DNA of 64,000 bases from Planctomycetota bacterium (GTDB lineage Bacteria > Planctomycetota > UBA1135 > UBA2386). Under the pieces are notes generated by a model. It searched no databases. It was not told the DNA's origin and saw only the letters and a program-made list of their open reading frames with translations. Position numbers and translations under genes: made by a program. The DNA is taken from contig JAPYTD010000006.1 in the NCBI GenBank assembly GCA_029936315.1, positions 16,442-80,441 of the forward strand, read 5' to 3'. Every line of letters begins with the position of its first letter. Position 1 is the first letter of the stretch. Of the stretch, positions 57,961 through 64,000 are shown piece after piece.

Positions 57961-58722
57961 ATGACCGAATCCGCGGATTTGCTCGTCGTCGAGGAGCTTC
58001 GCTACGCCTATGGCGATCGAGTCGCCGTGAAGTCCGCCAGCCTGACGTGTCGGCGCGGCGAGATCCTCGGTCTACTTGGCCCAAATGGCGCGGGCAAGAC
58101 CACGTTGCTGTCGTGCATCGCCGGCCTGCTGCCGAGCTTCGGCGGCAAACTGACGTTCGATGGTCAGCCGTTCTGGCCCGCGGATGACGCCCCGAGTCGT
58201 TCCCGTCTCGGACTCGTGCCGCAAGAACTGGCGCTCTACGGCGACATGACCGGTGCAGAGAACCTGCAGTTTTTCGCGCGCATGCAGGGAGTCGAATCGG
58301 CACAAGTCGCCGGCGCGGTGCAACGCGGTCTCGAACTCGCGGGCCTGGTCGATCGCGCCTCTGACCGGGTATCCGCCTACTCGGGTGGCATGAAGCGACG
58401 CCTGAACCTGGCCGTCGGCGATCTGCACAGCCCAGAGTTGCTGCTGTTGGACGAGCCGACGACCGGCGTGGATCCGCAATCACGCAACCACTTGTTCGAG
58501 TGCCTGCACGCGTTGCGCGACCGCGGTCGCACGATCATCTACACGTCGCACTACATGGAGGAGGTGCAGCGTCTCTGCGACCGCATCGTCGTCGTCAACG
58601 AAGGTGTCGTCATCGGCATTGGCACGACCGCCGAATTGGCTGAGCAAGCTGGCAAGCCCGGCGCCAACCTCGAAGAAGCCTTCCTGGCCATGACTGGTCG
58701 TTCGCTGAGGGATGAAGCATGA
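57961..58722 (+). CDS. ABC transporter ATP-binding protein
   Basis: Walker A GPNGAGKTT, signature YSGGMKRRL, Walker B LLLLDEPT. Confidence 0.9.
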   Translation: MTESADLLVVEELRYAYGDRVAVKSASLTCRRGEILGLLGPNGAGKTTLLSCIAGLLPSFGGKLTFDGQPFWPADDAPSRSRLGLVPQELALYGDMTGAENLQFFARMQGVESAQVAGAVQRGLELAGLVDRASDRVSAYSGGMKRRLNLAVGDLHSPELLLLDEPTTGVDPQSRNHLFECLHALRDRGRTIIYTSHYMEEVQRLCDRIVVVNEGVVIGIGTTAELAEQAGKPGANLEEAFLAMTGRSLRDEA

Positions 58723-60065
58723 ACACTTGGTCTACAGCACTCATCATCGCCCGTAAGGACCTGTCGCTGTACAGGCGCGACCGCACTGGTCTGCTCCTAG
58801 GCTTGTTGTTGCCAGTTGTGCTGGTGGCGGTGTTTGGCTCCGTCATGAAGTTCGCGTTCGGCGGCGAAGGAGGCATGCCGAGGGTGACTCTCTGGGTCGC
58901 TGACGAAGACGGCAGTCCCGAGAGTCAGAAGTTCGTCGGTGCTCTTCGCAACGTGTCGATGATCAGTGTTCGTCCGCGCGCCAATCAGGACCCGGCGACT
59001 GCAGCAGCGTTGCGCGGCAAGGTCAACGACGGCGAAGCGCACCACGCGTTGCTGGTCGGAGAGGGCTTTGGCGAAGCGCTATCCGAGGCGAAGGAACCGC
59101 CGTTGGTGTTGGTGCGCGATCCAGGTCGTCTGATGGAGGACCGCCTGATTGGCATTGCCATGATGCAGGCGATGATGTCGGCCGGCGATGGTCGCAGCAT
59201 GTCCTGGATGATGGGCAGCATGATGCGTCGTAACGGCATGAGCGAGCAAGGAGTCAAGCGGCTGCAAGCCAGCATGGAAGCCGTGCAGAGCGTCATCGGC
59301 ATGTTCGCCGGCGGCTCGGATCCAGAGTTGCGCAGCGAGACGGCGCCCGCCGCCTCTGCGGACAACTTCGACATGACGGCGATGTTCGAGGGCATGGTGC
59401 CGGTCACCAAAGAAGACGTCGCACCACCGGATCGCCCCAAGAACCTCGGCTTCCAGTTGGCGCAGAGCGTCTCCGGCATGTGCGTAATGATGTTGATGTT
59501 CGGTTTGATGGCTTGCAGCAGCATGCTGCTGGTCGAACGCGATCAAGGTACCTTGCGTCGTCTGTTGGTTAGCTGCGCACCGCGTCACGCGTTGCTGCTC
59601 GGTAAGTTCTTGTTCTGCTTCGTGGTTGGCTTTTTGCAACTGATCGTGCTGTTTGCCTTTGGCGAATTGGTGTTCTCGATTGGTGCCTTTCGCGATCCAT
59701 TGACGTTGCTCGCGTTGGCTACGACGTGGGTTGCCGCGGCGACGAGCTTTGGCATCTTGATCTCGGTGTGGGCGAAGTCGACCAAGCAGGCTGAAGGCTT
59801 GGCGACCCTCCTCATTCTGGTCATGGCTGCGCTCGGTGGTTGTTGGTTCCCGGTCCAGATGGTCGAGTTGCCATGGTACGGCGAGGTGATCACGCGCTCG
59901 ACGCTGACGTTTTGGGCGATGGAGGGCTTCCAGGGCATGTTTTGGCACCAGAAGCCATTGACGGATCCGGTCATGCTGCGCGCGATGGCGGTGCAGTGGG
60001 GGTTCGTTGTCATTGCGTCTTTCGCCGCGGTGCGGTTGTGGCGTCGCCGCTTCTTGGGCACGTAG
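58719..60065 (+). CDS. ABC-2 type transporter permease
   Basis: ATGA overlap with the ATPase gene. It has an N-terminal TM segment, a large extracytoplasmic loop and five C-terminal TM segments, the typical ABC-2 architecture. Confidence 0.8.
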   Translation: MNTWSTALIIARKDLSLYRRDRTGLLLGLLLPVVLVAVFGSVMKFAFGGEGGMPRVTLWVADEDGSPESQKFVGALRNVSMISVRPRANQDPATAAALRGKVNDGEAHHALLVGEGFGEALSEAKEPPLVLVRDPGRLMEDRLIGIAMMQAMMSAGDGRSMSWMMGSMMRRNGMSEQGVKRLQASMEAVQSVIGMFAGGSDPELRSETAPAASADNFDMTAMFEGMVPVTKEDVAPPDRPKNLGFQLAQSVSGMCVMMLMFGLMACSSMLLVERDQGTLRRLLVSCAPRHALLLGKFLFCFVVGFLQLIVLFAFGELVFSIGAFRDPLTLLALATTWVAAATSFGILISVWAKSTKQAEGLATLLILVMAALGGCWFPVQMVELPWYGEVITRSTLTFWAMEGFQGMFWHQKPLTDPVMLRAMAVQWGFVVIASFAAVRLWRRRFLGT

Positions 60066-60236
60066 TCTCCTGGGAGGGTTACGCCGCACGGTGTCTGCTA
60101 GTGCTGCGCGGTGGTGTGGTGGGCTCAAGGTCATAGCGGCGGCGAATGCATCAGCTTTGTCTGTTGCTCGATGCATGCGTGCACGCGTTATGATCGTCAT
60201 CACACAGACCAGAAACCTCCTTTCGGAATCAGCCAC

Positions 60237-61601
60237 GTGCGCGTTGCAATACTGCCTCTTCTTCTATCCTTGCTGACTACGGCTCTCGCTGCCCAGTCCT
60301 GGTCGCAAGTAACCACCATCAACAACCCGGGCCAGGTCCGCGATGCGTCGATGGCTTTCCACAACGCGAGTGGCAATTGCGTGCTGTTTGGCGGTTGGCC
60401 GGCACTCAATGCCACTTGGCTGTATGACGGCAGCAACTGGACTAACGCCGCGTCGGCGACGTCGCCGCCCGGCCGTCGTGACTTCGCCATGGCGTCTGAC
60501 ATCGCTCGAGGTGTCATCGTCCTGTTTGGTGGCTCCGGCCCACTAGGCGATACTTGGGAGTTTGACGGTAGCAACTGGAGCAACGTCACACCTGCGAGCA
60601 GCCCGCCGGCGCGCCTTGGCCACGTGATGGCATACGACGTCGCGCGTGGCGTGACGGTACTCTTTGGCGGCACCGGTAACCCAAACCTTCCGCCGGTCTT
60701 CATGGACACGTGGGAGTGGAACGGCACGACTTGGACACAAGTCGTCACGGCCAGCACGCCGAACGAACCGACCTTTTCGTGCATGTGCTACGACATCGCA
60801 CGCGCCGTCTGTGTCTTGACCGGTGGCACCAGCTTGTTTGGCGCCCCCGACCAGAAGACGTGGGAATACGACGGCAGCAACTGGGTCGACCGCACCGTGT
60901 CGGTTGGTCCGGCACCGAGTGCCATCCCGGGCCTTGGCGTGCAGAACGCGAAGATGGTCTATGACTCGACACGCGGCGTGTCGATGCTCTACGGCGGACG
61001 CACCCCGAACGGCACGTTCTCGACCGATACGTTCGAATACGACGGCAGCTCGTGGGGGGTTGTCGCGAGCGGCACACCGAGTTCGCGCACGCGCAACTCG
61101 ATGGCGTTCGACATGGCTCGCGGCGTGCCGGTTATCTACGGTGGCCTGACCGGCAACTTCCAAACGTGGTTTCAGGAGACGTGGGAGTTTAGTGCTCCGG
61201 TCTCGGCATCCTACGTGGTGTTTGGCGCAGGTTGCGCTGGCTCGGCTGGTGTTCCGACCAACAGCGCTTCGGCGTTACCCGTGCTCGGCCAGACCATGGT
61301 CGTCGACGTCGCCAACATGCCGGCGCCCGAAATCATGGCAATGGTCGTCGGCCTCAGCATCGTAAGCCCGTCGATTGACCTGGGCGTGATCGGCGCGCCC
61401 GGTTGCCCAGCGCGTGTGACGCCTGACTTGCTGAGCTTGGTGACGGGTGCCGCAGGTACTGCGTCCTACAGCCTTGCCATTCCGGCGACTGCGAATCTCG
61501 CGGGCTTCGAGCTACATACACAGGCAGTTGTGTTCGATGGCGCAGTTAACGCGTTTGGCGCGGTCGTTTCATCGGCAGCAACGGCAACCCTCGGCAATTA
61601 G
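60237..61601 (+). CDS. Secreted six-bladed Kelch-repeat propeller protein with a C-terminal beta domain
   Basis: The GTG at 60237 gives signal (M)RVAILPLLLSLLTTALAAQS. There are six repeats of W..v......P..R......yd..rgv.vLFGG. Alternative starts are ATG 60171 and the track start at 60111. Confidence 0.75.
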   Translation: MRVAILPLLLSLLTTALAAQSWSQVTTINNPGQVRDASMAFHNASGNCVLFGGWPALNATWLYDGSNWTNAASATSPPGRRDFAMASDIARGVIVLFGGSGPLGDTWEFDGSNWSNVTPASSPPARLGHVMAYDVARGVTVLFGGTGNPNLPPVFMDTWEWNGTTWTQVVTASTPNEPTFSCMCYDIARAVCVLTGGTSLFGAPDQKTWEYDGSNWVDRTVSVGPAPSAIPGLGVQNAKMVYDSTRGVSMLYGGRTPNGTFSTDTFEYDGSSWGVVASGTPSSRTRNSMAFDMARGVPVIYGGLTGNFQTWFQETWEFSAPVSASYVVFGAGCAGSAGVPTNSASALPVLGQTMVVDVANMPAPEIMAMVVGLSIVSPSIDLGVIGAPGCPARVTPDLLSLVTGAAGTASYSLAIPATANLAGFELHTQAVVFDGAVNAFGAVVSSAATATLGN

Positions 61602-61692: not shown

Positions 61693-62781
61693 ATGAACCG
61701 CATTTCCTACGGTGCAGCTGCTTGCGTGCTGCTGCTTTCTTGTGACGCGCTTGCGCAGGGCCGCGGCGGTCGCCAGCGCGGCGTCAACGTCGCTCGCATG
61801 CTCGAAAGATACGACGCCAACGACGACGGCAAGTTGACCAAGGATGAGGTTGCAAGCGCGTCGATGTGGCGACGACTGGTTGCTGTGGACAAGGATAAGG
61901 ATGGTGCCGTCACCAAGAAGGAGATGGAATCGTTGACGAGCGGCCGCGGTGGTCGCAGTCGCGGCGGCGAAGCGACGTGGAAGTTCTTGCAAGAGAAGTA
62001 CGACGGCGACAAAGACGGCAAGATCAGTGCGAAGGAGTACACACGCGGCAAGGCGACGTTCGCGCGGCTTGACAAGGACAAGGATGGAGTCCTGACCAAG
62101 AAGGATTGGGACGTGCCAGGCGAGCGTCGTTCGCGCGGCGGCAATCGAGACCGCAACGCCAAGAGCTCCGCGCCCGAAGCGGGCGATCGCGCACCAGACT
62201 TTACGTTGACCTACGTCGGTGACGCCAAGAAGAGCATGAAGCTGTCGGACTACGTCGGCAAGAAGCCCGTCGCGTTGGTGTTCGGGAGCTGTACTTGACG
62301 ACCGTTCGTGAGCTCAGCTGGTCAGCTGAGCGATCTCTACGCGGAGTTCTCCAAGGACGTTCAGTTCTTCCTCGTCTACTGCCGTGAGGCCCATGCGATC
62401 GATGGCAAGAATCCAGGCAGCAAGCCGGTCGAAGATCCCATCAGTGACGCGGAGCGCCGCTCCGTCGCGAAGAAGTTTGTTGCGGATATGAACCTGGAGA
62501 TCCCGACGTTGCTTGATGGTGTCGACGATGCCGTAGGCAAGGCCTACGCATCCCACCCAGATCGTCTCTACCTGATTGGCAAGGATGGTCTGGTTGCTTA
62601 CGCCGGCGACCGCGGACCCTCTGGCTTCGAACCGCGCGAACTTGCTGAGGCGATCGAGGACGAGTTGTTCCGCATCGAGGCGAAGCAGCCAGCGAAGGAT
62701 AAGCCCGCCAAGAAGAAGGCCGGCAAGACCACGTCGGACCGAAAGAAGTCTGGCAAGAAGGGGCCGTCGTACATTCGCTGA
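61693..62781 (+). CDS. Exported selenoprotein with four EF-hands and an iodothyronine-deiodinase-like thioredoxin fold. The in-frame TGA at 62296..62298 is read as selenocysteine.
   Basis: Track ORFs 61693..62298 and 62308..62781 share one frame. The junction reads KPVALVFGSCT-TGA-RPFVSSAGQLSDLYAEFSKDVQFFLVYCREAHAIDG ... DRLYLIGKDGLVAYAGDRGPSGFEPRELAEAIE. This parallels the deiodinase active site FGSCT-U-PSF ... EEAHASDGW ... ERLYI..G.I.YKG..GPW.Y.PEEV. The N-terminal half has a signal peptide and four EF-hand loops. Confidence 0.75.
62312..62331 (+). promoter_or_regulatory. Bacterial SECIS-like stem-loop downstream of the in-frame UGA
   Basis: GCUCAGCU-GGUC-AGCUGAGC: a perfect 8-bp stem with a GGUC apical loop. 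The stem starts 14 nt after the UGA, and the loop GGU lies at +25 to +27 counting the U of UGA as +1. Confidence 0.55.
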
Positions 62782-62852: not shown

Positions 62853-63248
62853 ATGAGAATCTACAGGCACCTGCTTTCTGTCAGCCTTGCGTTGGTAGGC
62901 GCGGCTCTTACGAGTTGCGCGACCACGAACGGCGACCCGTCAGCGACCGTAAACACCGACGCCTACAGCGTTGTCTTCCAAGGCAGCAAGGTCGAGGTGA
63001 CGTGCAGGCGGCCGATGGTACTAGGGGACTTCCTCAAGATGGCTCAGGCCGTAACCGGGAGGGTGTACATCTTCAAGAGCCCGGTCCCTGGCGGGGTGCG
63101 CTGGGAGTGGGTGGGCACCGTGAACGTCGAACGCGCGGAATTTGATGACTTCGTGGCCACCATGCTCAAGGTGAATGGCATGACCGCAGAGGCGCGACGG
63201 CACGGGGACGTAGACTTCATCGAGGTCATCCCCTTCAAGCGCGGCTGA
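62853..63248 (+). CDS. Small lipoprotein with a secretin-N0/STN-like fold pattern
   Basis: Signal MRIYRHLLSVSLALVGAALTSC (lipobox). VLGDFLKMAQAVTGRVYIF...VERAEFDDFVATMLKVNGM resembles the short N-terminal domain of secretins and TonB-dependent receptors. Weak call. Confidence 0.5.
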   Translation: MRIYRHLLSVSLALVGAALTSCATTNGDPSATVNTDAYSVVFQGSKVEVTCRRPMVLGDFLKMAQAVTGRVYIFKSPVPGGVRWEWVGTVNVERAEFDDFVATMLKVNGMTAEARRHGDVDFIEVIPFKRG

Positions 63249-63356
63249 GCAATCTCCGTCCCAAGAATGTCAGGCGCAGAGCTCAGCGCCGTGACGGACC
63301 GATGTGCAGACTAGGATTACGTGCGTTCACCGGGGCATGCGGTGAGGTCTGTGCAA

Positions 63357-64000
63357 ATGAATAGGTCGTCACTGCTGATATCCGTCTTGGGCCTGATGCT
63401 CACATCCTTTGCGGTCATGATGTGGCTGGGCAGTGAGCAGAGTGTGCCGCCGGCACCTCCGGCGACCGATGGCCCAGCGCTTGAGATTGCGAGCGAGGTT
63501 GCGTCTTCAGCAGTCGAAGCGGCGTTTGTGGTTGCTGACCCCGATGACGAAGCGGAAGACGTCGTCGATGACGAAGCCCGCGAAGAAGTCGTCATCGAGA
63601 TGGACGACTCGCCGCAGCTCCTCATCCAGGTATGGACCGGCAAGCGTGGTGTCGTTGCGCCCGAGGCCGAGGTGTTCGTGTTGGAAGGGTACAAGCGCTC
63701 CGGACCGCGCGATGCCTTTCAGCCGCATCGTTGTGAATTGGCGATCACACTCGGCAAGCGCTACCGCGCGTCGTCCGAGGGGCGAGTTGCTGTGCCAAGG
63801 CTCAAGGCCGACGCCATCGTCGCGGCGCGGCTGCCAGGCGCGGCTGGCATGGTCAGCGTTCGCAAGCACTACTCCAAAAGCTCAGTCGTGCTGCAGCCAG
63901 ATGAAACTGTCACTGTGCGCGTGGTCAACTACCTAGGTCGACCCGCAGCTGGCGTGCCCGTAGGGATTCAGCAGCGCATTGCCAGTCGTGTGCCGGTCAA
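63357..64000 (+). CDS. Hypothetical membrane-anchored protein. The 3' end runs off the window, so it is absent from the ORF track.
   Basis: My own translation from the ATG at 63357 is open to the window end: MNRSSLLISVLGLMLTSFAVMMWLG (TM anchor), an acidic linker (DPDDEAEDVVDDEAREE), then a beta-sandwich-like region (VTVRVVNYLGRPAAGVPVGI). Confidence 0.55.
   Translation, partial: MNRSSLLISVLGLMLTSFAVMMWLGSEQSVPPAPPATDGPALEIASEVASSAVEAAFVVADPDDEAEDVVDDEAREEVVIEMDDSPQLLIQVWTGKRGVVAPEAEVFVLEGYKRSGPRDAFQPHRCELAITLGKRYRASSEGRVAVPRLKADAIVAARLPGAAGMVSVRKHYSKSSVVLQPDETVTVRVVNYLGRPAAGVPVGIQQRIASRVPV

Follow-up and report, generated by a model that had tools for sequence, protein, structure and literature searches.

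The hairpin at positions 62312–62331 on the forward strand of the 64-kb stretch of DNA analyzed here (64,000 nt, hereafter the window) is very probably a bacterial SECIS element, lying inside the coding region of one gene for a secreted selenoprotein that combines EF-hands with a deiodinase-like domain. This reading is supported by the protein domain that spans the in-frame TGA just upstream of the hairpin, by the presence of TGA at this codon in 74 of 80 related loci, by covariation in the stem, by the bias of the loop codon to GGU, and by the loss of the hairpin in the forms of the protein that carry Cys instead of selenocysteine (Sec).

The gene occupies 61693–62781 on the forward strand and consists of 362 codons and a stop codon. 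The ORF at 61693–62298 and the continuation of the same frame to 62781 form one coding sequence, in which the TGA at 62296–62298 (codon 202) is the sole interruption of the translation. The true stop codon at 62779–62781 is also TGA and is read as a stop. The product begins with a probable signal peptide (MNRISYGAAACVLLLSCDALAQ, 61693–61758), recognized by reading the translation and possibly containing a lipobox-like LLSC. The signal peptide is followed by four EF-hand calcium-binding loops (DANDDGKLTKDE, DKDKDGAVTKKE, DGDKDGKISAKE, and DKDKDGVLTKKD, within 61783–62109; Pfam EF-hand_5/1/6/7, E = 2e-15 to 2e-10), a thioredoxin-fold domain of the iodothyronine deiodinase family (62176–62658), and a Lys-rich tail.

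The position of the TGA in the deiodinase-family domain should be noted. In a Pfam search of the gene product with Cys placed at the TGA position, T4_deiodinase (PF00837) matches residues 162–322 (E = 4.6e-24) and spans codon 202. The score of 85.5 bits exceeds the gathering cut-off of 27. The NCBIfam profile NF038285 (“deiodinase family protein,” deiodinase_rel, a hypothetical equivalog) gives 197.3 bits. This is less than the 250 bits of its curated cut-off, since the match is limited to the C-terminal domain (residues 158–321 against profile positions 173–340) and the N-terminal half differs. The domain also matches the structures of mouse Dio3 (PDB 4tr3, E = 4.5e-19) and Dio2 (PDB 9h48, E = 4.6e-10). 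The TGA aligns with the catalytic Sec of 4tr3, which is Cys in the crystallized construct (FGSCT-U-RPF in the window protein and FGSCTCPPF in the structure). The predicted Sec codon thus coincides with the catalytic position of the family motif FGSxT-U/C-xxF, where Sec or Cys is found.

The EF-hands do not occupy a constant place in the family. They are N-terminal in the window protein and in its orthologs from two Planctomycetota MAGs (L031 and L032), and C-terminal, past the deiodinase domain, in many relatives (P0013, P0016, P0024, P0026, P0030, P0047, and P0053). This distribution suggests that calcium-binding modules have been fused to the deiodinase-like enzyme repeatedly or by shuffling. 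In the window, the gene is preceded by an ABC-2 type permease (58719–60065) and a Kelch/beta-propeller repeat protein (60111–61601). It is followed by a small putative lipoprotein (62853–63248) and then by the start of a protein of ~980 aa with a faint CarboxypepD_reg match (62853–64000 for the downstream region as a whole). The same gene order is found in three metagenome contigs (L161–L163).

All elements of the hairpin lie on the forward strand. A 13-nt spacer (62299–62311) separates the UGA from the base of the hairpin. The 5′ arm of the stem is GCUCAGCU in RNA and GCTCAGCT in DNA (62312–62319), the apical loop is GGUC (GGTC in DNA, 62320–62323), and the 3′ arm is AGCUGAGC in RNA and AGCTGAGC in DNA (62324–62331). 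The whole element, GCUCAGCU-GGUC-AGCUGAGC, therefore has a perfect 8-bp stem and a 4-nt loop. When the U of the UGA is counted as +1, the loop lies at +25 to +28, with G, G, and U at +25, +26, and +27, respectively. An earlier note on this DNA had placed a perfect 8-bp stem with a GGUC loop 13 nt past the TGA and GGU at +25 to +27, and both its coordinates and its arithmetic are confirmed. That note had also proposed folding the segment with RNAfold. Exactly the 8-bp/4-nt hairpin appears in both the MFE and the centroid structures of a 60-nt segment, the free energies being −12.3 kcal/mol for the isolated hairpin and −20.6 kcal/mol for the segment. Both arms are supported by the sequence itself, RNAfold, covariation, and RNAalifold. 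The codons within the hairpin are AGC TCA GCT GGT CAG CTG AGC, encoding SSAGQLS.

The hairpin by itself is no rarer than chance. The 60-nt segment folds about as well as its dinucleotide shuffles (z = −1.03; 31 of 200 shuffles fold as well), and the window contains 10 perfect hairpins with stems of at least 8 bp and loops of 3–8 nt, while ~15 are expected from a first-order Markov simulation. The earlier view that a perfect 8-bp stem is unlikely to be incidental thus fails for the hairpin taken alone. The weight of the argument rests on where the hairpin is placed and how it behaves in relatives. Its position right after a catalytic-site TGA, its codon choice, and its conservation with covariation in orthologs are beyond chance, as described below.

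We scanned one genome per species with a profile and obtained 80 related loci. Most of them are in Planctomycetota MAGs, and the others are in genomes labeled Gaiellaceae, Chloroflexota, Deltaproteobacteria/Myxococcota, Latescibacteria, and Gammaproteobacteria, among others. The active-site codon is TGA in 74 of the 80 loci, which belong to several phyla, and TGC in the other six (L053, L060, two copies in L067, L072, and L076). The two copies in L067, a Planctomycetota MAG, are tandem Cys-form deiodinase-like paralogs located at 2808 and 4105, ~1.3 kb apart.

The TGA might be a real stop codon. In that case, the region would encode a 201-aa EF-hand protein and a separate 157-aa protein starting from the GTG at 62308, or it would be a pseudogene with a nonsense mutation, and the hairpin would be incidental or serve coupling or re-initiation. 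Public gene calls give exactly these two ORFs, cutting the gene at the TGA into products of 201 and 157 aa, and nearly all database homologs are likewise C-terminal fragments. TGA is also an ordinary stop elsewhere in the window, where it terminates 12 of the 34 long ORFs, including the hairpin gene at its own end, and perfect 8-bp hairpins arise by chance at the density observed. However, the TGA cuts the thioredoxin-fold domain in the middle of the active site, so that neither half is a complete fold. The occurrence of TGA at the same codon in 74 loci of several phyla is not expected of a pseudogene, the Cys homologs are continuous reading frames, and the genes for tRNA-Sec, SelA, and SelB adjoin orthologs, as described later. 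We consider a real stop at this codon quite improbable.

The stop codons of the 34 long ORFs are TAG in 18, TGA in 12, and TAA in 4, which is unusual for a genome with 62% G+C. Genome-wide reassignment of TGA is ruled out by the 12 ORFs that end with it. A SECIS-style scan of the window gave seven further in-frame TGA candidates, none of which has a redox motif or a convincing hairpin, and these were taken as frame artefacts.

The TGA sequences fall into two classes according to the position of the hairpin. Class 1 consists of the window sequence and 42 loci (43 sequences), which align without gaps (alignment A2) with the hairpin at identical columns. The GGUC loop (columns 25–28) is invariant in all 43 sequences. 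When the class is read on the structure given in the earlier note, 87.5% of the cells are paired, and changes affect both sides in six of the eight pairs. The covariation score, in which counts are per sequence and not per independent evolutionary event, is 0.436, against 0.206 ± 0.019 in column shuffles (none of 500 reaches 0.436). In slid controls, where the 3′ partners are moved by 1–3 columns, covariation is at most 0.155. RNAalifold predicts the inner seven pairs from the alignment alone. Conservation of the hairpin in TGA orthologs, which had been proposed as a check on its function, is thus found together with compensatory changes.

The loop-closing pair is particularly informative. It is C-G in 25 of the class 1 sequences and U-A in 17, and it is unpaired in none. 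On its 5′ side, this pair uses the third, synonymous base of an Ala (or Val) codon, and on its 3′ side the base that decides between Gln and Arg. The pair therefore couples a silent base with the Gln/Arg base, so that the silent site tracks an amino acid change across the loop. Adjacent to it in the stem is a pair that is C-G in 37 sequences and U-A in 5, and likewise unpaired in none. G-U pairs are tolerated in the stem, with a change from A-U to G-U in 10 sequences (pair 21–32) and from U-A to U-G in 5.

One class 1 gene deserves a separate remark. In L048, a MAG labeled Pseudohongiellaceae, the gene carries the SECIS hairpin together with an in-frame TAG 13 codons past the TGA (RLKQL*SQYGDD, ~2789–2835). 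It may be a pseudogene, an assembly error, or something else.

Class 2 consists of 29 other TGA sequences (alignment A4, a subset of L038–L080). Their hairpin is 4–5 nt closer to the UGA, with a loop of AGGUU, AGUUG, or AGGCU at +20 to +24, and falls on different codons of the same conserved peptide region. It covaries as well, the score being 0.356 against 0.101 in shuffles (none of 500 reaches the observed value). Covariation of a hairpin that uses different codons indicates selection on the RNA and not on the peptide. There are accordingly two SECIS registers within one protein family, one with the loop at +25 to +28 (GGUC) and the other with the loop at +20 to +24.

Scanning again, this time with Cys forms as seeds, we obtained 80 further metagenomic loci and reached a total of 52 distinct Cys-form sequences. 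These Cys controls are a more distant subfamily (FGNFTCGPF, about 45–50% identity), neither sister lineages nor recent Sec-to-Cys converts, and in this comparison the free energy of the best simple hairpin within +8 to +45 has a median of −8.2 kcal/mol among 75 distinct TGA sequences, compared with −2.5 kcal/mol among the 52 Cys forms (Mann-Whitney p = 3e-14). The G+C contents of the two sets are similar (0.62 and 0.61, respectively). We also applied the bacterial SECIS (bSECIS) descriptor to both sets, with a stem of at least 4 bp, a loop of 3–9 nt, a G in loop positions 1–2, and a distance of 16–37 nt to the loop. A compliant hairpin of −7.5 kcal/mol or lower is present in 51% of the TGA sequences and in none of the 52 Cys forms. 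With the limit set at −4 kcal/mol, the proportions are 89% and 12%, respectively, and of the 67 TGA sequences that have such a hairpin, 65 show a distance of 16, 17, 20, or 21 nt from the UGA to the loop. Loss of the hairpin in Cys-containing homologs, another check that had been suggested beforehand, is therefore observed.

The palindrome might instead be kept for the sake of the peptide SSAGQLS, with its conserved Gly, or by codon bias, with no RNA signal involved and the TGA read through or suppressed in another way. The Gly at codon +8 is indeed kept in Sec and Cys forms alike, and since the self-complementary CAGCTG occurs twice in the hairpin, the symmetry could be partly compositional. 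However, the Cys forms retain the Gly without the hairpin, and the codon differs. All 42 distinct class 1 sequences use GGU for the Gly in the loop, but only 2 of 38 Cys forms do so at the homologous Gly. GGU accounts for 76 of the 411 Gly codons (18%) over the next 100 codons of the same class 1 genes. The U in the loop is thus a synonymous position that is nevertheless fixed. Moreover, only 0.5% of 5000 synonymous recodings of the window peptide, drawn with the codon usage of the hairpin gene and its two upstream neighbors, reach −12.3 kcal/mol. The covariation of synonymous with nonsynonymous sites across the stem and the use of different codons by the class 2 hairpin also stand against preservation of the peptide or codon bias as the cause, which is largely refuted and in our judgment very improbable. 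The statement in the earlier note that the hairpin constrains the codons agrees with the uniform GGU and with the third base of the Ala codon, which covaries with the facing Gln/Arg codon.

It is extremely improbable, and largely refuted, that the hairpin is a transcriptional element unrelated to decoding, such as an intrinsic terminator, an attenuator, or a protein-binding DNA palindrome: the inverted repeat is perfect in DNA and present on both strands alike, but no T-run follows it, a scan for intrinsic terminators and promoters finds none at the site, the GGUC loop is strand-specific and invariant, the tolerated G-U pairs fit RNA rather than recognition of duplex DNA, and the presence of the hairpin tracks TGA versus TGC.

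The Sec machinery was sought in the window and near the orthologs. In the 64-kb window, ARAGORN detects a tRNA-Pro only and no tRNA-Sec, and tblastn searches with SelA and SelB of L031 give no matches. Since these genes are absent from the window, we infer the Sec competence of the source genome from its relatives. In class 1 orthologs, ARAGORN finds tRNA-SeC(TCA) 129 nt past the gene in L031, 16 nt past it in L032, and ~2.5 kb off in L028. The next ORFs in L031 and L032 encode SelA (PF03841, E ~1e-136) and SelB (GTP_EFTU and SelB winged helix), and both genes are on the opposite strand within a few kb of the tRNA-SeC gene. The corresponding coordinates are 3383–7626 in L031, 4001–8479 in L032, and 6954–7050 in L028, all of which are Planctomycetota MAGs. 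Some orthologs are thus linked to selC-selA-selB, and the family belongs to genomes that decode Sec.

In the standard bacterial mechanism, the SelB-GTP-Sec-tRNA(Sec) complex binds the apical loop of the SECIS element while the ribosome is at the UGA (PMC8659212, PMC13188914). If the window gene is decoded in this way, a ribosome at the UGA (62296–62298) would have the hairpin just outside its mRNA entry channel. The apical GGUC loop, in which G26 and U27 are the putative counterparts of G23 and U24 in E. coli fdhF, would be bound by the C-terminal winged-helix domain of SelB. Competing with release factor 2, SelB-GTP would then place Sec-tRNA(Sec) in the A site, and the UGA would be read as the catalytic Sec of FGSCT-U-RPF and not as a stop. 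The nucleotides of the hairpin also encode SSAGQLS, so the stem and the loop would have to be kept through codon choice and coupled amino acid changes. SelB binding and actual Sec insertion, as well as the machinery in the source genome, are presumed here by analogy with this mechanism and with the relatives.

Clues to what bacterial deiodinase-like proteins do come from the fusion to EF-hands and from the probable export signal. It is conceivable, though we think it rather unlikely, that the combination represents a calcium-regulated exported selenoenzyme (a reductive dehalogenase or peroxidase, for example) and is a main reason why the Planctomycetota that carry it keep the Sec machinery, a thought that arises because the gene adjoins selC-selA-selB in some relatives; on the same speculative view, the family, whose hairpin has shifted by 4–5 nt against the reading frame (loop at +25 or +20) with a G-U/G-G motif preserved in the loop, would be a natural experiment on the spacing tolerance of SelB. 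As for annotation, public assemblies list two “hypothetical” ORFs where a single selenoprotein gene should be given. The comparative set comprises 72 TGA sequences, which fall into two spacing classes, and 52 distinct Cys controls. It could be of use in studies of how SelB recognizes its target outside Enterobacteria and in making selenoprotein gene finders better. The hairpin leaves the present view of Sec decoding as it is. It provides a well-supported bacterial SECIS element whose GGUC loop resembles that of E. coli but which lacks the bulged U and is spaced one codon further from the UGA.

The hairpin was compared with the published bSECIS model (bSECISearch of Zhang and Gladyshev; PMC13188914, Fig. 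2A), in which the loop is 3–9 nt, the stem is 4–16 bp, at least one G is in loop positions 1–2 (usually G[G/U]), the distance from the UGA to the loop is 16–37 nt, and the MFE is −7.5 kcal/mol or lower. The window hairpin agrees with the model on all four counts, namely the size of loop and stem (4 nt and 8 bp), the loop sequence (GGUC), the distance between the UGA and the loop (21 nt, 62299–62319), and the free energy (−12.3 kcal/mol). The earlier note had placed such a spacing within the published range, which is correct. The descriptor is permissive, and agreement with it is weak evidence by itself; it is the comparative data that provide the support. As for a functional SECIS element, the in-frame UGA aligns with Cys/Sec, and the structure is kept in UGA orthologs and lost in Cys homologs. 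Rfam gives no match to a SECIS family in the window at the gathering threshold, and a search of 62250–62400 at E ≤ 10 returns only a meaningless lncRNA match (E = 5).

The SECIS element of E. coli fdhF has a GGUC apical loop whose GGU is in frame as a Gly codon. Like it, the window element is a hairpin within the coding region that directly follows the Sec UGA on the 3′ side and has the same loop and the same Gly codon. In fdhF, 11 nt separate the UGA from a stem-loop of 17 nt whose loop contains G23 and U24 and whose U17 is bulged (PMC8659212), in agreement with the +23/+24 positions given in the earlier note. In contrast, 13 nt lie between the UGA and the window stem, so that the G and U are at +26 and +27. 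Its stem is a perfect 8 bp, with neither the bulged U17, which is essential in fdhF, nor an extended lower stem reaching back to the UGA. The window hairpin is therefore not a strict fdhF-type element, as it departs from both the 11-nt start and the bulged U17.

Animal DIO1–3 share the active-site motif FGSCT-U-xPF and the fold with the window protein. Their SECIS elements, however, are kink-turn structures in the 3′ UTR read by SBP2/eEFSec, whereas that of the window gene is a hairpin in the coding region, probably read by SelB. Thyroid hormones, the substrates of the animal deiodinases, are not expected in bacteria (PMC1088965). The closest parallel is provided by the bacterial deiodinase-like selenoproteins, which were reported in 2005 in work on the Sargasso Sea selenoproteome, together with their bacterial SECIS elements and Cys homologs (PMC1088965), and are included in current reviews (PMC13188914). 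The window protein is like them in its thioredoxin fold, its catalytic Sec, the bacterial-type SECIS element just downstream, and the existence of both Sec and Cys forms, and it differs in its four EF-hands, which lie in the N-terminal half, and in the probable signal peptide before them. Bacteria are thus already known to have deiodinase-like selenoproteins with SECIS elements, and the window gene adds one more.
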